Virus record (IMG/VR): IMGVR_UViG_2585427781_000002
Length of the DNA: 40,067 nt
Strand: one strand, 5' to 3'
From: a virus
Lineage: Duplodnaviria; Heunggongvirae; Uroviricota; Caudoviricetes
Both the position numbers and the translations under genes were made by a program. The notes beneath the pieces were generated by a model. It worked only from the letters and a program-made list of their open reading frames with translations, did not search any database and was not told where the DNA came from. Of the stretch, positions 6,061-40,067 are shown one piece after another (within the stretch, counting starts at the first letter, position 1; every line of letters begins with the position of its first letter).

Positions 6061-6708
6061 TCAGCGACCAATCACCACAACCTGACCACCATCCCCTTCG
6101 TCTGCCGTGCTGATCTCCTGAGAAACCACCCGCGACCCCACGCGCATTTCACCGTACAGAACAGGCAAAACATTGCCCTGGGCAACCATGTTATCCAGTG
6201 AGGAGAAATAGGTGTTCTGTTTGCCGTTATCTGTACTGGCTGCCGTGGGCGTCCTGGCTTTCGGTGCCAGCATCTGCGCCACTCCGCCCAGGATCATACT
6301 GGCCCCTGCCGCATACATGCCCGATACAGCCGCGGCACCCAGCCAGCCCACAGGGTTCCACCATGCCACCGCAATCAGCGCCGCCCCAAGCACCACCTGA
6401 AACACACCGCCACTTTTAGCTCCCGCCAGACGCGGCACGATGTGGATCACGGCACCATTTGCCAGCGGCTCATTAAGACGGGCAGATAATTCATTTTCGC
6501 CTGCATCACGCCCGGCAATGCGCACCTGATACCAGCCCTTATTCAGTTTCTGACGAAACGCCGGGAGCTGAGTGGCCAGCGCCCGGATGGCTTCGGCCCC
6601 CGTTTTCACACGAAGGTCGATGCGGCGGCCAAATCGTTGCAAATCCCCGTAAAGGCAGATGCGTGCCATGCCCGGTGACGCCAGAGGGAGTGTGTGCGTC
6701 GCTGCCAT
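6061..6708 (-). CDS. I: tail assembly protein I
   Basis: 215-aa ORF directly upstream of J, overlapping the K 3' end as in lambda; C-terminal hydrophobic Gly/Ala-rich segment. Confidence 0.8.
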   Translation of the reverse strand: MAATHTLPLASPGMARICLYGDLQRFGRRIDLRVKTGAEAIRALATQLPAFRQKLNKGWYQVRIAGRDAGENELSARLNEPLANGAVIHIVPRLAGAKSGGVFQVVLGAALIAVAWWNPVGWLGAAAVSGMYAAGASMILGGVAQMLAPKARTPTAASTDNGKQNTYFSSLDNMVAQGNVLPVLYGEMRVGSRVVSQEISTADEGDGGQVVVIGR

Positions 6709-20980: not shown

Positions 20981-21530
20981 CTGGCAGGTGAAAATCAGGT
21001 TTATTTATATATTTCAATTAATTGCAAACTAGTCTAATGACAGGGAGAAAAAAATATTGTACAGCTGAAAAGAGAAATAACTTTTAATTATCAATAAATT
21101 ACCAAACATGCTGCCGCCACCATGGAAATGCAAAAACTAGCCTTTTTCCGCGACGCTCCCGCCCCGTGGCAGGGCCCCCCACTGGGAGGACCCGACAGCC
21201 TGACAACCGTGACGAGCATCTGTAACAGAGCTTTACATAATGGCATGGGGATAATTCAGAAGGACATCACAGCATGCCCACACAAATTAGTGTGAGTGTC
21301 CTGTCTCTTACTACGCGCAGGACTGACGAGCATGAGGGGAAAATACGAGAACCGAAATGCCTTATCTTCAGAAATGCAGCCGGCATCCGAACTGGACGAT
21401 ATTGTAAATTCACCTAAATACGAGGCATTGCTGTAGTTGAATTGCATTGCTGTATTAGCCTGACAGTGACAGAATACGATATTGACTCTGTCACTTGTGA
21501 AATGGTCAGAATGGTTAGCAGTTATGGTGA

Positions 21531-21737
21531 TCAGTCAACCACCAGGGAATAATCCTTCGTATTCTTATCGTGCTTTACTAACGCGGCCTCAATTGCCCTG
21601 AATGCTTCCAGAGACACTTGATGTTCTATACATGCAATTACAACATCCGGGTAACCCATCGAAATGGTGCTAATAAGCATAGTTTTTACACGAACCTGCT
21701 CCTGGGAGGGGGCATCAGTGTATTGATCTTTATGCAT
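21531..21737 (-). CDS. conserved small lambdoid-phage protein of unknown function
   Basis: 68-aa ORF; ...[38 protein letters not shown]... resembles a small ORF I recall near the right end of lambda. Confidence 0.5.
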
Positions 21738-22032
21738 TTTGTCGCTCCATGCGTTTGCTCTTCACTTACGGCTAAAAATATAACGTCAAATCACTCAGCA
21801 TGAAAGAGTGAAAGATTCAGCGCGTTTCCCTTACATAATCTGTCGTTTGTATTCTCTTCAGGCATACCGAAAAGACTAGGTATTGTCACACAACCAATAC
21901 CATCGACAATCGAGATTTATACCTATTCGGTAATGTTTAAATATAACAAAACCCCGTAAAAACGAGGTTTATGGGTAATTTGTATTGTTGAATAGCATCT
22001 GATGAGAAATTGATGCTAATGCTATAAACAGA

Positions 22033-22206
22033 CTAGATTAAATCAATCTTGATATCATAGCTTTCAAGACCAGTCATTTTTTCCCGTGCAGTAAACTGGA
22101 TACTGGTAACTTCTTTCCCGGTCTTTTTCTTAAGCTCAATGATTTTTTTTGTTATATATTCAGAAATATCTGCTTCTGTTTTTGTTTTTAACTCTTCAAT
22201 GTTCAT
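22033..22206 (-). CDS. gnsB: GnsA/GnsB family protein
   Basis: From ATG 22206: MNIEELKTKTEADISEYITKKIIELKKKTGKEVTSIQFTAREKMTGLESYDIKIDLI, 57 aa, matching the GnsA/GnsB family as remembered. Confidence 0.8.
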   Translation of the reverse strand: MNIEELKTKTEADISEYITKKIIELKKKTGKEVTSIQFTAREKMTGLESYDIKIDLI

Positions 22207-22378
22207 CATTTCCTCTTTTAGTCTGTTATGACTTTCCTGGTACACAGTAGTGTCAATTATATGGAGCAAGCGTATAAAAGATAAGATGAAACATCGCAAT
22301 AATCAACATACGACGGTCTAAATTTCACACAAACAGATAAAGATGATTATCATTTATTATCAATGCATTAGAATCAAA

Positions 22379-22609
22379 TCAATTCAAGAGTCTCATTGCT
22401 GCTTCCAGAATTTCTTCTGAAGTTACATGCCGATCCGCTGCTACATAAATGACTTTATGATCTCCGGTCAGAGATGGAAACCCTGCAGCCATTACAGTGA
22501 GGTGTGTTGTTTCGCCATTTGGATATTCACGCATGATGGTGTTAACTCCGGTCATCACTGGCACTACCATTGCTGGTTCAGAGTTAAAAAAAACTATTAT
22601 TTTTTTCAT
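22379..22609 (-). CDS. hypothetical small protein upstream of the GnsB-like gene
   Basis: 76-aa ORF from ATG 22609 (MKKIIVFFNSEPAMVVPVMTG...); the in-frame upstream extension in the track is probably not translated. Confidence 0.5.
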   Translation of the reverse strand: MKKIIVFFNSEPAMVVPVMTGVNTIMREYPNGETTHLTVMAAGFPSLTGDHKVIYVAADRHVTSEEILEAAMRLLN

Positions 22610-22880
22610 AATGTTACCGTAATATGTGAGTATCCATCGACTAGACACTAAGCAAAAAAGCTCCCGAAGGAGCCTTCATTTTCACTTTCTTAAATCTAAC
22701 GACAGACGGCTAACATTTAAGTATTGTGAAATATTATCAAATGTAATCATCATTGATTTACAAAAGATACATTTTGCCCCGAAAGGATTCCTGTCAGAAA
22801 CATCAAAAGATGATGTTCTATACTGAGAACCATGGCAACACGGGCATCTAAAGTGAATATGGTTTGTAATATTTTCTACC

Positions 22881-23093
22881 TCAAAGTGCCACAACATGAA
22901 CAGCCGCGGGGCCTTTAGGTCCGTTCTCAATACCAAATTCGACTTCCTGATTCTCAGTTAACGTTTTGAAATCGTTGCTCTGAATAGCTGAGAAATGGAC
23001 AAACACATCTTTGCTACCATCTTTCGGCGTGATGAAACCAAAACCTTTTTCAGGGTTAAACCATTTCACTAAACCAGTCATTTTGTTAGACAT
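22881..23093 (-). CDS. cspI: cold shock protein, CspA family (CspI-like)
   Basis: [70 protein letters not shown]; canonical RNP motifs, 70 aa; long AT-rich upstream region consistent with a csp 5' UTR. Confidence 0.9.
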
Positions 23094-23456
23094 CATTATT
23101 ACCTTTTGAAGAAGTTAGCCCTTGGGCAGAATGGTCCGAAAAAAAATATCAGAGAGAAAAACCAACAAGGAAATCTCAAGAGGTACAAATAATAAAATTA
23201 TAACAATGACTGCTTCAGATAATTTTGTAACAAACCAGAACACCATTAACGCATGATTAACCAACCATAGCAAGGATTACTTTTGTAAAGAAAAACACAC
23301 GAATGAAACAATAGCTTTATTTATTAATAAAACGTGTCATTCTGTCTAATGACCTTTTATCTTACCCTTAAGATTTCAAGGATTTTGACTCATGGAAGAG
23401 TCCTTTTTATTTAAATTTCACATTCAGCGCTAAAAATAATCCGATTTAATATTAAT

Positions 23457-24484
<1,028 letters not shown>

Positions 24485-24611: not shown

Positions 24612-24908
24612 ATGAACGGTATAGATCCATTCAAACCAATCAGTAAGCAACTTGATGTGGTATTACCACAACTGACAAAACACAACGACCTTCTGGATAA
24701 AGTGTTGCCTTTTTATATTGCTGTTACCGCAAAATTATCAGGTAAAACTCGAGAAGAGGTTCTCAAATATAACATGCTGGCTTTAGAAACAATTTTTGGC
24801 TCAGAAAAAGCGGGAAAATCACCCAAAGAGCTGGCAGAATCTCAATTTGCTTATATGACAAATATAAGAGTATCCGAAATCTTTGATAAGCTACCAGACA
24901 TTGAATAA
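24612..24908 (+). CDS. hypothetical protein encoded antisense to the lysis cassette
   Basis: 98-aa ORF with AAGGGA RBS-like sequence upstream of the ATG; no signal peptide; AT-rich; convergent with the 72-aa gene. Confidence 0.5.
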   Translation: MNGIDPFKPISKQLDVVLPQLTKHNDLLDKVLPFYIAVTAKLSGKTREEVLKYNMLALETIFGSEKAGKSPKELAESQFAYMTNIRVSEIFDKLPDIE

Positions 24909-24932
24909 TTTCTAAGCGGCAGTAATGCCGCT

Positions 24933-25151
24933 TTATATTTTTTCAGCCAAATCTCTCAAGAACTGTTTGGCATGTTTTACCGCAGTAACTTCATAATAAT
25001 CCAAACCAGCTCCTTCAAGTCGCTCAAGGTTGATGTTCAGATCAAAAATTTCACCGGCAAAACGTTCTTTGTCCTGTAACGTTAAGATTACCGTAACTTT
25101 ATTCTCAAAATTGCGGGTCCCTTTCACAATCAGTTCATAGTTTTTAGTCAT
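24933..25151 (-). CDS. hypothetical small protein between holin and endolysin
   Basis: 72-aa ORF starting 5 nt downstream of the holin stop; same strand as the lysis genes. Confidence 0.5.
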   Translation of the reverse strand: MTKNYELIVKGTRNFENKVTVILTLQDKERFAGEIFDLNINLERLEGAGLDYYEVTAVKHAKQFLRDLAEKI

Positions 25152-25155
25152 TGTC

Positions 25156-25371
25156 TTACTCTCCTCTCGCAGCCTTACGCCTGTCTTCTTTAATCTTGAA
25201 ATAAAGGTTTGTCAGATACGTCAGCATGCCAAATACCAGACTACCCAATACACCTATTGCCGCCCACTGTGAGGGTGTGACTTTATCGAGCAACTGTAAA
25301 AACCAGTAGCCAGCACTGCCTGCAGAGGTGCTGTAGGCGATGCCCGTTGTTAACTTATCCATGGATTTCAT
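25156..25371 (-). CDS. pinholin, phage-21 S type
   Basis: From ATG 25371 with GGAGGTGA RBS: [71 protein letters not shown], 71 aa, with the dual-start motif (M1..M4) and two transmembrane segments, matching S21 as remembered. Confidence 0.9.
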
Positions 25372-25561
25372 AGCCTCACCTCCGCAGATAACGGATGGTG
25401 TACACGGTTTGGTTCGAAGAAGGAAAGAAGTTACATTAGCGTAAGGCCCGAACATCTATTCAAAAAGAAAAACGCCAGCAATTATTCTGGCGTAGCTAAA
25501 AATATCGTATAATCTTACACTTCAAAAAATAACTTTATAAAATGCCATCACATCATATCTT

Positions 25562-26284
25562 CTAAGAAAATCTTGATAAATATTGGTGCGGAGGCACACC
25601 AAAATATCTTCTAAAAACACTTACAAAATATGATGCATTGTCATACCCGCATATTCCCGCCACCTTGCCGACAGTATGGTTACTGTAGATCAATAATCTT
25701 TGCGCCATCATCATTCGTTCTTCAAGAATTAATTTACTAAACGATAATCCTTCGTCTTTTAATTTTCTTTTTAACAAACTCTCGCTCATATATAATCTTG
25801 AAGATATATCACAAAGTCTCCATGACGCTGAGATATCCGAGTGAATAATAGCCTTAACTTTACAACCTAAGCTATTAAGACTTCCGAACAAAAAACTTTG
25901 CACTATTTTCTCTGAAGATAAGACAGCAAGACATGCAAGTGATATTTGATTTCTAACTACATCCACGGTTTTGCTATCACAATTCAAGCATGCAACCAAG
26001 TTCTTTAACAATGAAAAATCTTCACATTCTACTATCAAGTATGACGGATAAAACCTTCTTACAGAAAAAGGTGAGAGTGTGTAGTTTTTAAAGAAATCAT
26101 TAACTGTTTTCTCCTCAACATCTACGATCATTAGATGATCTGTATTTGACGAAAAAAGATCTTTTAAATTGTATTCAATGAGGACAGCATTTCCTTTTTT
26201 AAACAAAATATCTTCTTTACCAATTCGGACACCAAACGAGTTCAACACCAAAATGATAGAACATATGTATGGCATATTATCCAC
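25562..26284 (-). CDS. AraC/XylS-family transcriptional regulator
   Basis: 240-aa ORF with a C-terminal AraC-type helix-turn-helix (...GICGYDNASYFVSVFRRYFGVPPHQY); low-GC gene with a 400-bp AT-rich upstream region. Confidence 0.85.
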   Translation of the reverse strand: MDNMPYICSIILVLNSFGVRIGKEDILFKKGNAVLIEYNLKDLFSSNTDHLMIVDVEEKTVNDFFKNYTLSPFSVRRFYPSYLIVECEDFSLLKNLVACLNCDSKTVDVVRNQISLACLAVLSSEKIVQSFLFGSLNSLGCKVKAIIHSDISASWRLCDISSRLYMSESLLKRKLKDEGLSFSKLILEERMMMAQRLLIYSNHTVGKVAGICGYDNASYFVSVFRRYFGVPPHQYLSRFS

Positions 26285-26681
26285 CTGATATCATTGGGGT
26301 TACACCAGGTAAGTATAGGTGGAAAATCAATATTCGCCAGTTCAACAATAAGGAAAATCTCATTGCATCACAACTATAAAACCATGTGTTTAACTCACAA
26401 AAAACAAATCATTAAACTAATCTGTTATATTATAATAGCTGCGTGCAATAATAATATTATATACTCTTAATATTCACTTGAAATATCTTCATATAAAAAC
26501 AGATTGAATAAAATCGTTTGGGGCTGGTATGTTTACCAACATTAAATTGCATCTCAATGTTTTCTTTAGCGTGAACAGGATTTTTATAAAAACTGACACT
26601 ATGAGCATCATAGCGTAGTTTTTACGATTGTAAATATCCTGCATACAGGAACTCATCACTTTCAGATGATATCGCATACAG

Positions 26682-27641
26682 TTAATTCACCATCAGTCTT
26701 AGAGCCAGTTCTTCCGGATAGGGATCGAAGTAATTCTGTGTAAGCAAGTAATCATTAGGATACTCACCCAGATAATGCTTCAGCAGAGTCAACGGCGCAA
26801 GAAGAGGCAATGTGCCAAAGCGATAGTTAAGTATAACCTCGCTCAACTCTTTACGCTGGCGTGTACTTAAGTAATTACTAAAATACCCCTGTATATGCAT
26901 CAGCACATTCGTGTGATTTTTACGTGATGCTGGTTTTCTGAGAATCGCCATCAGATTATCACGATACACCTCAAAGTATGATTCAAGGTCCGCCCACTCG
27001 TGTATTGCAGCCACAAATGGTCCCATATCTTTATAGCCTGCCTGGCTATGCGCCAACAACTGAAGCTTATAACGACTATGAAAAGCTAATAACTCTCTTC
27101 TTGATAATTTCTCCTTGTAAAGGTGATTGAGCTCATGCAAAGCAAAAACTCTTTCAATAAAATTCTCACGAAGCACTGGATCATGTAATCGCCCATCCTC
27201 TTCAACCGGTAGCCAGGAAAACTTTTCCATCAAAGTGCTCGTAAATAGTCCCACTCCATCTTTACGACCTCGATTACCATTTTCATCATAGACACGCACG
27301 CGCTCCATGCCACAGCTGGGAGATTTAGCACAAACCACAAACCCCGATACATCCTTTAATTTGTCCATATAAGAACGACTAAACTCTGTCATTCTCTCTG
27401 TCACATCCTCATTCTGGTCGTGGCTGAAACACATCCGTATATTTCCTTGCTTCGAGCGCACAAGTCGTAGAGCAGGACGCGGAACTGGCAGCCCTATAGC
27501 CATTTCCGGACATACTGGTCTGAATGTTACCCATTCCACTAATTTGTCCATTAAAAAGTCATCTCTTTTGTGACCACCATCAAAACGAACAGCAGAACCG
27601 CCCAAACAACCGCTGATCCCAATCACAGGTTTTTTTATCAT
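26682..27641 (-). CDS. DUF523 (TudS-like thiouracil desulfidase family) fused to DUF1722
   Basis: 319-aa ORF; N-terminal GISGCLGG...FDGG with conserved cysteines (..RPVCPE.., ..CAKSPSCGMERV..) typical of DUF523, and a helical C-terminal half consistent with DUF1722. Confidence 0.65.
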   Translation of the reverse strand: MIKKPVIGISGCLGGSAVRFDGGHKRDDFLMDKLVEWVTFRPVCPEMAIGLPVPRPALRLVRSKQGNIRMCFSHDQNEDVTERMTEFSRSYMDKLKDVSGFVVCAKSPSCGMERVRVYDENGNRGRKDGVGLFTSTLMEKFSWLPVEEDGRLHDPVLRENFIERVFALHELNHLYKEKLSRRELLAFHSRYKLQLLAHSQAGYKDMGPFVAAIHEWADLESYFEVYRDNLMAILRKPASRKNHTNVLMHIQGYFSNYLSTRQRKELSEVILNYRFGTLPLLAPLTLLKHYLGEYPNDYLLTQNYFDPYPEELALRLMVN

Positions 27642-27833
27642 TTCCTCCCCCTTGACTAATTCATTAACACATAAACTTTGTAGTGCACGGACTAAATTGC
27701 CTTTCTGGCTTCATCACTGACAATTTTTCTGTTATTGACTATTCCTAATATAGTAGGAAAGTTCTTTAAGTGATCGGTCGTACTCATCTATCTTTCATAC
27801 TTACTCTCAACTATCAAAAGTACAGGATTTATT

Positions 27834-28358
27834 ATGAAGTTATGGCCTGTGTTGACTGGCATTGCACTCTCTTTCACTCTTATAGCATGTAAGGCCCCGA
27901 CACCACCTAAAGGTGTGCAGCCGATTACAAATTTTGACGCCAACCGCTACCTCGGAAAATGGTATGAAATAGCTCGCCTCGAGAACTGGTTCGAACGTGG
28001 TCTGGAACAGGTCAGCGCTACTTATGAAAAACGGAACGACGGAGGGATTCGCGTACTTAACCGTGGATACGATCCAACGAAAAACAAATGGAGCGAGAGC
28101 GAAGGTAAAGCATACTTTACTGGAGATACTAAAACTGCAGCGTTGAAAGTTTCGTTTTTTGGCCCCTTCTATGGTGGCTATAATGTAATCAAGCTGGATG
28201 ATGAGTATAAGTATGCTCTTGTCAGTGGTCCGAACAGAGAATACCTATGGATTCTGGCAAGGACCCAAACTATTCCAGATAATGTAAAAGCAGACTATGT
28301 GCGTACCGCTCAAAAGTTGGGATTCAATGTCAATGAACTATTATGGGTTAAACAATAA
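27834..28358 (+). CDS. blc: outer membrane lipocalin Blc
   Basis: 174-aa ORF with lipoprotein signal peptide and lipobox (LIAC), then ...NFDANRYLGKWYEIARLENWFERGLEQVSATY...KVSFFGPFYGGYNVI...YLWILART.., matching bacterial lipocalin as remembered. Confidence 0.9.
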   Translation: MKLWPVLTGIALSFTLIACKAPTPPKGVQPITNFDANRYLGKWYEIARLENWFERGLEQVSATYEKRNDGGIRVLNRGYDPTKNKWSESEGKAYFTGDTKTAALKVSFFGPFYGGYNVIKLDDEYKYALVSGPNREYLWILARTQTIPDNVKADYVRTAQKLGFNVNELLWVKQ

Positions 28359-28386
28359 AATCCCCACCCGAAATGATACTTATTAG

Positions 28387-28413
28387 AAAAAAACCAGCCT
28401 TTGGGGAGGCTGG
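28387..28413 (-). terminator. intrinsic terminator downstream of Q (tR'-like)
   Basis: Stem CCAGCCT (28394-28400) / AGGCTGG (28407-28413) with loop TTGGGG; on the minus strand the hairpin is followed by a 7-nt U-run (plus-strand A-run 28387-28393). Lies about 100 nt downstream of the Q stop. Confidence 0.6.
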
Positions 28414-28513
28414 CTAAATCAGGAAACAAGCTGTTATATGATAATAACTACGTTGCGATTCCAACATTTAAAATGTTAGACTAATGAAAATCAGACAGCA
28501 ACTTTTCCTTTAA

Positions 28514-28906
28514 TTATTTCGAACAATCAGCATCCATCTCCAATCGGAGATCCAACACCATCAGCATGCCCTCCACTACGCCCTCAGCTTTCTGGAGCAT
28601 CCTGCCAACCCAACAATCAGATCGCCCATGCTTACGTGCAAGCGCCATAAAAGTCATGCCGCCGACATAATAGTCCACCAATAAATCATGTAAATCGCTG
28701 TTGTTTTTTTTCAGGCGAGCCATACATTCACAAATGATCATCGCGTCATCGTCACAGCATTGCGGACGAGATCTTACTTTTGAAGGAATTAATCCCTTAA
28801 AACCGGCGGCAATGGACGACCAGGTCACATCTTCATGATTATTAGCCGCCCATGCCCCCCAACGCTCAAGAACCATCTGAATATCACGCATCAACTTACT
28901 CCACAA
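28514..28906 (-). CDS. late-gene antiterminator Q (phage 21 / QuuD-like)
   Basis: ...[73 protein letters not shown]... closely resembles Q21-type antiterminators as remembered; the start may be the internal Met (MRDIQ). Confidence 0.85.
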
Positions 28907-28908
28907 AA

Positions 28909-29958
28909 TTAGGCCAGCACACCAATTGCCAGCGCGCGATCGATAAATCGAAAAATCAGCTCCAGTTGGGAGCCATACTTCTCTTCAAATGCCACGGTAT
29001 CCGTATGCAACTCGTCGTGATGCTTTCTGCACAAAGGCAACACAAAGAGATCATGTGCTTTGGTTCCCATTCCGCCCTGCCCGTGACCAATTAGATGATG
29101 CGGATCGTCGGCTGGCATACCGCAGCAAGCACACGGCTGTGTCTTAACCCAGCGTGTGTATTTCTCCTTAACCCAACGGTGACGTTTAGGCAGCTTCATG
29201 AAAGATTCCGGAGACTCTGGATCAACGGTGATGCTTACCACCGTCTTTTCCTGTGATGGGTTTTGTTGCTGGTGGGCGTGAGGCAACGGTGCAAGATTTT
29301 TTGTGCGCTGTTTCAATATGCTGGTGGCGGTCTGCTCTCCCGGTACGATGTCGCTTTCGCGGTACACCGAGCAGTTTTTTTCCGCTGGTAATCCCAGCGA
29401 GCGACGTAATACCACTTCCGGTAGCGCGTCCGCCACCTGATTGCGGACCGCCCACCAGGATAATTCAGCCAGAGATAATTCACGCTCCTGCGTACCGCTT
29501 ATTGCGTGACCGATGACGTCAATCATCCATGCTGACAGGTTTTGATGAGCAAGTTGCTCGAGTGATTCGGATGTCTGGTCACGCAGCTGGTTGTCGCAGT
29601 GCCAGCACAACACCATTGCGCCGGTACCATAACGGTGAATAACGGTTTCGCTGTGATGATAATCGCCGTGTGGCCACTGGCAGGATTTAATATGGCGCAA
29701 CAGCCAGTCAGACAATGCACCAGCACCACCAGCAGCACGAATTACCCGTGCGTTACTGAAAAACGGCAGCAATGTTTTGTCTTCCACCAGCGGCTGGCGA
29801 ACGGCAGGAACGACCCCGGACGGCAGATTACGCATGCTTTTCGGTTCCGGCTCCACCAGTACCCGGGTATTGTGGAATACCGGCATGGATTCACGGCCCG
29901 GCTTAACGACCACCAGCCCGAGTTCCGGTACCAGAACAGGTCGAAGTAATACCCGCAC
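28909..29958 (-). CDS. DUF968-family phage protein (YdfU-like)
   Basis: 349-aa ORF with C-terminal Cys/His-rich motif ([18 protein letters not shown]...CRKHHDELH); translationally coupled to neighbours on both sides. Confidence 0.6.
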
Positions 29959-39828: not shown

Positions 39829-40067
39829 GGTAATGACTCCAACTTATTGATAGTGTTTTATGTTCAGATAATGCCCGATGACTTTGTCATGCAGCTCCAC
39901 CGATTTTGAGAACGACAGCGACTTCCGTCCCAGCCGTGCCAGGTGCTGCCTCAGATTCAGGTTATGCCGCTCAATTCGCTGCGTATATCGCTTGCTGATT
40001 ACGTGCAGCTTTCCCTTCAGGCGGGATTCATACAGCGGCCAGCCATCCGTCATCCATATCACCACGT
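39829..40067 (-). mobile_element. IS1 insertion sequence (partial, runs off the right edge)
   Basis: Begins with the terminal inverted repeat GGTAATGACTCCAACTTATTGATAGTG, followed by the reverse complement of the insB 3' end. Confidence 0.9.
39844..40065 (-). CDS. insB: IS1 transposase InsB, C-terminal part
   Basis: Track ORF ...[69 protein letters not shown] matches the InsB C-terminus as remembered. Confidence 0.9.

Follow-up and report, generated by a model that had tools for sequence, protein, structure and literature searches.

The stretch of DNA analysed here (the window: 40,067 nucleotides, IMG/VR record IMGVR_UViG_2585427781_000002) is a lambdoid Escherichia coli prophage of the Qin site, in which the late genes are encoded on the minus strand. 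The closest relatives match it at 99.9% identity across 24 kb and adjoin rspB. The subject of this report is a three-gene cassette located between the antiterminator gene Q and the holin gene. Along the direction of late transcription, the order is ydfU, Q, blc (on the opposite strand), rudS, araC, a hairpin and an S21-type holin gene, and the holin gene is followed by a DUF1327 gene, a lysozyme gene and Rz. An earlier reading of this DNA, made without database searches (the sequence-only reading), had placed the three open reading frames (ORFs), Q, a terminator after Q and the S21-type holin, and all of these placements are borne out by the ORF list, Pfam and a terminator scan. Also upheld is the view that the cargo is unrelated to phage morphogenesis, that it sits between Q/tR' and the holin, and that blc is convergent with late transcription; the other two genes, rudS and araC, point the same way as late transcription. 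Within the proposed extent of the island (25456-28513), positions 28359-28513, a non-coding stretch of 155 bp, are the phage's own late-promoter and terminator region and do not belong to the cargo.

The Q gene (28514-28891/28906, minus strand; Phage_antitermQ, PF06530, E = 8e-51) forms the left anchor of an exchangeable block of Q and cargo. Its product is 97% identical to gp64 of phage 1H12, 86% identical to Q of mEp332 and 79% identical to Q of Sakai prophage Sp4, and by sequence it is of the QuuD (DLP12) type. Similarity to Q21 (PDB 6P18) is only that of a distant relative (E = 5e-9), and the assignment as a phage 21-like Q was rejected; the label "21-like" in the sequence-only reading is thus appropriate for the holin only. 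Downstream of Q is the late-promoter region (28416-28513, minus strand), recognized from its sequence and its conservation between alleles, which would contain pR' and the Q-loading region. It is nearly identical across four cassette alleles, has short blocks in common with the nmpC-type slot of mEp332, and includes an invariant CATATAACAG block at 28440-28431. The candidate late promoter, TTGCTG-17-TAACAT at 28501-28473 on the minus strand, matches in only 8 of 12 hexamer positions and was not called by the promoter scan, so the pR' assignment is tentative. A published experimental map of the late promoter, Q-binding element and pause for a Q of this type was looked for and not found.

The tR'-like intrinsic terminator (28385-28415, minus strand) is located 99-129 bp downstream of Q, with a 9-bp stem (5 G-C pairs), a 6-nt loop and a run of seven T residues, and is kept in all cassette alleles. 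A simple scan returned 8 terminator-like sites against 2.7 expected. The two best, both on the minus strand and each followed by a T-run, are at 28415-28392 and 25493-25472, and the former is the hairpin that had been proposed at 28387-28413. The layout of a Q-dependent late operon, in which a candidate promoter and an intrinsic terminator come after Q and before the lysis genes, is present and is kept in all alleles. In lysogens, pR' is constitutively active and its transcript is terminated early, and in Stx phages the short product is a regulatory RNA (PMC7547250). The corresponding transcript predicted here (28475-28383, approximately 80-90 nt) has a folding energy of -24.1 kcal/mol (z = -4.0 versus shuffled sequences), and its sequence is conserved in all cassette alleles. 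Such an RNA could be a constitutive small RNA of the lysogen, resembling lambda 6S RNA or StxS. An Rfam scan of 24900-29100 at E <= 1 assigned no family to it; the sole match, a sub-threshold hit of an unrelated betaproteobacterial small RNA family to the terminator hairpin, was taken as chance.

The first cargo gene, blc (27834-28358, plus strand), encodes a lipoprotein lipocalin (Lipocalin_2, PF08212, E = 7.5e-43). The protein scores 312.6 bits against the NCBIfam subfamily NF007786, above the cut-off of 267, and is 63% identical to E. coli Blc (PDB 3MBT, E = 8e-67), 96% identical to gp65 of 1H12 and 76-80% identical to the Blc proteins encoded beside rudS in Enterobacter and Leclercia. Its signal peptide, MKLWPVLTGIALSFTLIAC, has the lipobox LIAC with Cys19 followed by Lys, from which a lipoprotein of the outer-membrane type is predicted. 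In the phage literature, blc is listed among the morons in >50% of temperate lambda phages from infant stools (Mathieu et al. 2020, Nat Commun, PMC6969025). A 2026 bioRxiv lipocalin paper was set aside, as it deals with host lipocalin-2 only and not with phage blc. Between blc and rudS lies a divergent spacer of 192 bp (27642-27833; guanine plus cytosine (GC) content 0.344), which is highly conserved among phage alleles and presumably contains the promoters from which both genes are transcribed in the lysogen.

The rudS gene (26682-27641, minus strand) encodes a fusion of a TudS (DUF523) domain to DUF1722, with both Pfam domains at E ~1e-39: PF04463 covers residues 7-149 (E = 5.8e-40) and PF08349 residues 192-309 (E = 9.4e-40). 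DUF523 is now named "2-thiouracil desulfurase". Residues Cys12, Cys44 (in CPE) and Cys110 (in SPSCG) align with Cys10, Cys43 and Cys104 of TudS (6Z92), and the cysteines of the [4Fe-4S] cluster and the catalytic Glu/Ser motif are present at the positions given for RudS_vir in PMC11417400. RudS_vir is H3V29_gp66 of phage 1H12 and is 92% identical to the protein in the window. The rudS product is predicted to be a [4Fe-4S] tRNA 4-thiouridine (s4U) desulfidase, an activity known for this 92% identical ortholog. All RudS variants tested, including RudS_vir, lower tRNA s4U upon overexpression in E. coli (Nucleic Acids Research (NAR) 2024, PMC11417400), and RudS overexpression is reported in the same source to reduce the growth delay that ultraviolet A (UVA) induces in E. 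coli. Elsewhere, RudS genes are found in light-responsive operons (PMC11417400).

Beyond rudS is an AT-rich spacer of approximately 400 bp (26276-26681, minus strand, GC 0.31) with a conserved promoter-like site, TTTACA-16-TATGAT at 26634-26607 on the minus strand, which matches in 10 of 12 positions in the scan. The hexamers are kept in four alleles, while the rest of the spacer is diverged and indel-rich, and the site is presumed to be the araC promoter. An ORF of 62 amino acids in this spacer (26489-26677) was dropped as a fourth gene, since it has no Pfam match and its frame is not preserved in other alleles. The araC gene (25562-26275/26284, minus strand) encodes an AraC/XylS-family regulator with a C-terminal double helix-turn-helix (HTH) region (HTH_18, residues 161-237, E = 1.8e-17; HTH_AraC, E = 1.4e-12). 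Identity to Sakai PsrA is 47.5% over the C-terminal 160 amino acids and, by tblastn, approximately 39% over 237 amino acids, with a match that extends upstream of the annotated PsrA start. Identity to GadW is 33% (full length), to AppY 30% and to YdeO 29%. The best NCBIfam matches are YdeO (113.8 bits, cut-off 348) and GadX (90 bits, cut-off 500), and the protein falls below every equivalog cut-off; it is thus a member of the GadW/YdeO/AppY/Psr subgroup and not an ortholog of any named member. Other cassette alleles encode proteins 77-87% identical to it, and more distant homologs occur in other coliphages. PsrA, PsrB and PatE are reported to switch on acid-resistance genes (GAD and hdeA) and to repress type III secretion (PMC10877973).

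Between araC and the holin gene is a second intrinsic terminator (25462-25493, minus strand; terminator scan), in which ACGCCAG, a loop and CTGGCGT are followed by a T-run. It is conserved in four cassette alleles and presumably keeps cargo transcripts of the lysogen out of the lysis genes. In mEp332, whose slot contains nmpC, an unrelated GC-rich inverted repeat with a T-run was seen by eye in the alignment upstream of the holin gene (6620-6660), and it may be that an insulating terminator is a general feature of cargo in the Q-to-holin slot. The S21-type holin gene (EssD; 25156-25371, minus strand; PF04971, Phage_holin_2_1, E = 6e-34) opens the lysis genes and anchors the slot on its right side. 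Its start is most likely at 25371, where there is an MKSM dual start, and not at 25455; PGAP annotates a gene of 216 nt. The extended holin ORF of 99 amino acids was rejected in favor of the 71-amino-acid form with the MKSM start, and 1H12 does not have the upstream ATG. Other prophages share homology with the holin region up to approximately 17-31 bp upstream of the start codon (25388-25402), which places the cargo boundary near 25400. On the other side, homology with the nmpC-type slot ends approximately 18 bp before the Q stop codon. These breakpoints indicate that the exchangeable unit consists of Q, the late promoter and terminator, the cargo and the holin gene.

The sequence-only reading had described the segment as AT-rich relative to the flanking phage genes, and the composition agrees: GC is 0.380 in the segment versus 0.506 in the rest of the window (38.0% vs 50.6%), and only 0.4% of windows of the same size are as low. 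At third codon positions (GC3), the values are 0.31 for araC, 0.40 for rudS and 0.42 for blc, versus 0.50 for Q, 0.53 for the holin gene and 0.56 for ydfU. The low GC is unevenly distributed, with araC and the spacers (0.28-0.34) driving the signal and rudS and blc (0.43-0.44) only mildly low. AT-rich DNA like that of the araC region is of the type usually silenced by H-NS. Other low-GC patches are found in the window at 21-23.5 kb and 24.5-25 kb. The cassette thus has the deviant base composition by which morons are recognized.

Sequences matching the 3,058-bp segment are found in 1,154 of 5,426 complete E. coli genomes, 883 of which cover at least 80% of it, and the matches fall into two main identity classes, >=99% and 90-95%. 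A 355-bp probe for the Q-blc junction is nearly complete in 1,084 of the 5,426 genomes, and a 390-bp probe for the araC-holin junction in 987; these counts indicate that the cassette is almost always in the same Q-to-holin slot. At least three backbones carry it: Qin-like (ydfU upstream), DLP12-like (rusA and ylcG upstream) and lambda-like (cII, O, P and ren). Twelve records of isolated phages, including 1H12, the Lambda_ev series and IdasGreatGrand, contain it as well. The same trio thus recurs at the same position on several backbones in related prophages, and the suggestion that it is an unusual and undescribed phage module does not survive: it occurs in approximately one-fifth of E. coli genomes and in the 12 phage records, its genes are annotated in RefSeq, and two of them are discussed in the phage literature. 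With rudS tested experimentally, blc listed as a moron and AraC related to the published PsrA and PsrB, the cassette is already partly described. No paper that describes the three genes as a single unit, or tests them in their native context, came up in a literature search on YbgA, lipocalin, AraC and prophage, and a paper on the LF82 prophage transcriptome makes no mention of the cassette genes.

Other genomes have different cargo in related slots. The gene nmpC, in antisense orientation, occupies it in mEp332 and DLP12, and cspB and cspF are found behind a different Q in K-12 Qin. In Sakai Sp4, the slot contains a CAAX protease, PsrA and tRNA genes. The Q-to-holin slot is a known cargo hot spot, and the presence of other cargo in related slots indicates that the cassette is dispensable for the phage, as is expected of a moron. 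In several genomes the cassette is interrupted by the insertion sequences (ISs) IS903B, IS3, IS1 or IS2, some of which split rudS into separate DUF523 and DUF1722 ORFs. In the BL21 derivative Rosetta2-DE3, only blc and the first third of rudS match, and the match starts approximately 100 bp from the start of the record. Two contigs of a "Candidatus Nanosynbacter" metagenome-assembled genome (JARKOR010000151 and JARKOR010000135) carry Q, blc, rudS, araC and the holin gene at 85-98% amino acid identity; almost certainly, E. coli prophage DNA was binned there in error, and this is not a Saccharibacteria gene.

When one genome per species was scanned, Citrobacter, Enterobacter, Leclercia, Kluyvera, Klebsiella, Pectobacterium and others proved to have chromosomal homologs of RudS that are 66-76% identical to the phage protein. 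Of the 62 non-phage loci, 42 have a divergently oriented blc homolog (76-80% identical) upstream of rudS within 6 kb. The two genes are separated in Enterobacter by a MerR/MlrA-like gene and a transthyretin-like gene, which agrees with the MerR link reported for RudS in PMC11417400, where Salmonella LT2 STM1389 (ORF319) is under a MerR-family regulator. In Citrobacter sedlakii, blc and rudS are directly adjacent and 187 bp apart, compared to 192 bp in the phage. The phage Blc is closer to the chromosomal Blc proteins linked to rudS (76-80%) than to E. coli Blc (63%). None of the 62 chromosomal rudS loci has a Q, holin or Psr-like AraC gene nearby. The simplest reading of these sequences is that blc and rudS were captured as a unit from an enterobacterial chromosome, that the MerR-type gene was lost, and that the pair came to stand beside a prophage-type AraC gene. 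The phage blc-rudS spacer gives no meaningful alignment with the Citrobacter chromosomal spacers, and capture as a unit is read from synteny. New here is the recognition that blc and rudS, as a divergent pair, have long been linked on the chromosomes of Enterobacter, Leclercia and Citrobacter, and that the MerR-type regulator is absent from the phage version.

Between three allele classes, the ratio of nonsynonymous to synonymous divergence (dN/dS) is 0.11-0.22 for rudS, 0.07-0.20 for blc and approximately 0.2-0.25 for araC, close to the values of 0.03-0.09 for Q and the holin gene; dS between cassette alleles reaches 0.3-0.6. All three cargo genes are under purifying selection. The presence of the cassette in phages that were isolated and are viable also speaks for functional genes. 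This selection on the trio, and the conserved terminators that bracket the cassette, are also new.

Taken together, the locus is probably a widespread three-gene moron (lysogenic-conversion) cassette that moves together with a QuuD-type Q and an S21-type holin as a single block and is exchanged by recombination among lambdoid backbones. Transcription from the late promoter after Q would start in the lysogen and stop at the tR'-like hairpin (28415-28385). blc and rudS would be transcribed divergently from the 192-bp spacer and araC from the conserved site just after rudS, with the terminator at 25493-25462 keeping cargo transcripts out of the holin gene. Blc would be lipidated at Cys19 and sent to the outer membrane, where by homology it may bind lysophospholipids or fatty acids. 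RudS would strip sulfur from tRNA 4-thiouridine, leaving less UVA-sensitive s4U8 and a reduced growth delay under near-UV light. AraC is most likely a Psr/GadW-like activator, acting by analogy on AT-rich, H-NS-silenced host promoters such as those of the gadE and hdeA acid-resistance genes. Given that blc is convergent and rudS and araC are co-oriented with late transcription, Q read-through of the cassette is to be expected. Upon induction, Q-modified RNA polymerase would ignore both terminators and proceed antisense through blc and in the sense direction through rudS and araC into the lysis genes, and RudS and AraC would also be made late in the lytic cycle. This model of induction is inferred from gene orientation and the established behavior of lambdoid Q proteins.

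Several points weigh against this account. The hexamers of the proposed pR' are weak (8/12), and the simple scan called no strong sigma-70 consensus in the 192-bp blc-rudS spacer. The transcription scheme as a whole (use of the promoters, read-through, antisense effects on blc) is inferred. The AraC protein is only 29-48% identical to characterized relatives and under all NCBIfam equivalog cut-offs. tRNA desulfidation by RudS_vir appeared to be below what its relatively high protein level led one to expect, and the assays were of overexpression only (PMC11417400). Finally, the IS interruptions in several genomes indicate that the cassette is not always maintained.

It may instead be that the cassette serves the lytic cycle in the manner of auxiliary metabolic genes, although this seems unlikely. 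Late RudS would then strip s4U and so avert the loss of burst that cross-links, the stringent response or translation arrest would cause after UV or sunlight, with AraC and Blc as passengers or helpers. The position of rudS and araC between pR'/tR' and the holin, co-oriented with late transcription, fits such a role, as does the reduction in UVA-induced growth delay upon RudS overexpression (PMC11417400). Phage rudS also comes without the chromosomal MerR-type regulator, and the loss of that gene from a family found elsewhere in light-responsive operons suggests that control has been rewired. However, RudS acts on intact s4U, with no sign that it repairs cross-linked tRNA, so late expression may be too late, and blc is antisense to the late transcript. 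The cassette is moreover intact in many cryptic or defective Qin-site prophages (the terminase of one close relative has an internal stop), which argues for a benefit to the lysogen.

Two further explanations concern what else the genes could be doing, or whether they do anything. That Blc is part of a phage-versus-phage or envelope-protection module, a lipoprotein that blocks superinfection or alters a receptor or the membrane like Cor, Llp or Bor-type proteins, under the control of AraC, is very improbable. Its outer-membrane lipobox is suggestive, as is the alternative slot occupant nmpC, which also encodes an outer-membrane protein and is likewise antisense just after Q, and most lambda morons from the infant gut encode membrane or membrane-binding proteins (PMC6969025). 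However, this protein is an unremarkable representative of the chromosomal Blc subfamily, and its linkage to rudS in non-phage chromosomes indicates that the pairing predates the phage. We know of no report of Blc excluding phages. Least credible of all, and extremely improbable, is that the segment is hitch-hiking or decaying DNA, without current function and kept between two essential phage elements. The insertions of IS903B, IS3, IS1 and IS2, the truncated copy in the BL21 derivative and the H-NS-silenced type of the AT-rich araC region would be in keeping with decay. However, none of the three ORFs is broken in the window or in any related locus inspected, at least 80% of the segment is matched in 883 genomes, dN/dS is 0.07-0.25 with dS up to 0.3-0.6, the regulatory elements are conserved, and the enzyme from the 92% identical allele is active.

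The moron reading leaves room for a more specific scenario, which is offered as speculation and is doubtful as a whole. In it, a phage captured blc and rudS as a light-stress pair and swapped the MerR-type switch for Q antitermination and a Psr-like AraC. RudS made late would reset the tRNA pool (less s4U, less UVA cross-linking and ppGpp (guanosine tetraphosphate) signalling, and altered stability of certain tRNAs) and protect phage translation after induction by UV or sunlight, and the same gene would give approximately one-fifth of E. coli a RudS activity that is missing from the core genome.

The cassette is real but ordinary. E. coli is stated in PMC11417400 to lack RudS; contrary to this, approximately 20% of complete E. 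coli genomes carry a prophage rudS behind a late promoter, and UVA and s4U physiology may therefore differ between strains by prophage content. That blc and rudS, so far studied apart, are linked on chromosomes in a conserved way points to a possible common role of the two in stress. The cassette also provides a naturally mobile test case for whether cargo of the Q-to-holin slot is used by the lysogen, the induced phage or both, as with stx. Its value is one of context rather than discovery, and no long-standing question is made newly testable by it.

Some other features of the window were observed in passing. The low-GC patch at approximately 21000-23500 (GC 0.31-0.44), downstream of Rz, contains a cold-shock gene (22881-23096, CspI-like), and its counterpart in close relatives contains ymcF/ynfQ, ynfN and gnsB, an accessory cluster also present in K-12 Qin. 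Between a shortened DUF1327/YdfR-like gene (72 amino acids) and the lysozyme gene is an ORF of 98 amino acids (24612-24908, plus strand; GC 0.36, GC3 0.29). It has no Pfam match and is annotated by PGAP as a hypothetical protein in related genomes; in K-12 Qin, a full-length ydfR abuts rrrQ and there is no counterpart of this ORF, which looks like a second small cargo insertion. The 177-amino-acid lysozyme (23951-24484, minus strand) has a hydrophobic start, which together with the S21 holin (MKSM) suggests, by eye, a pinholin paired with a signal-anchor-release endolysin. At the end of the window, the last 238 bases (39830-40067) are outside the 99.9% alignment of the best-matching genomes, which ends at 39829. 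In the best-matching records this point is inside the integrase gene, and it may mark a recombination point or a different int allele.

The closest known counterpart of the locus is in phage 1H12 (NC_049947, gp64-gp68), which like the window has Q, an opposite-strand blc, rudS, an AraC-type gene and an S21-type holin gene. The products are 97% (Q), 96% (Blc), 92% (RudS) and 77% (AraC) identical at the amino acid level. The backbone differs, being lambda-like with rusA and ylcG upstream of Q in 1H12, whereas that of the window is Qin-like with ydfU upstream; the araC allele of 1H12 is also much more diverged (dS ~0.6), and its rudS-araC spacer is shorter. In Sakai Sp4, PsrA (ECs1087) is encoded in the equivalent slot, behind a 79% identical Q and next to an 85% identical ydfU. 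However, PsrA is more than 50% diverged and is not an ortholog, and its neighbors are a CAAX protease and tRNA genes rather than blc and rudS. The chromosomal blc-rudS pair is divergent like that of the phage, but usually has the MerR/MlrA-like and transthyretin-like genes in between. The nmpC gene, which comes first in the cargo of mEp332 and DLP12, is antisense to late transcription as blc is, and in these phages a hairpin and T-run precede the holin gene, as judged by eye. More broadly, the stx, nmpC and cspB/cspF cargo resembles the cassette in being located behind pR'/tR' and in its foreign composition, and in Stx phages short pR' transcripts ending at tR' are documented (PMC7547250). These systems differ from the cassette in their genes and presumed benefits, and coupling to induction is proven for stx only.

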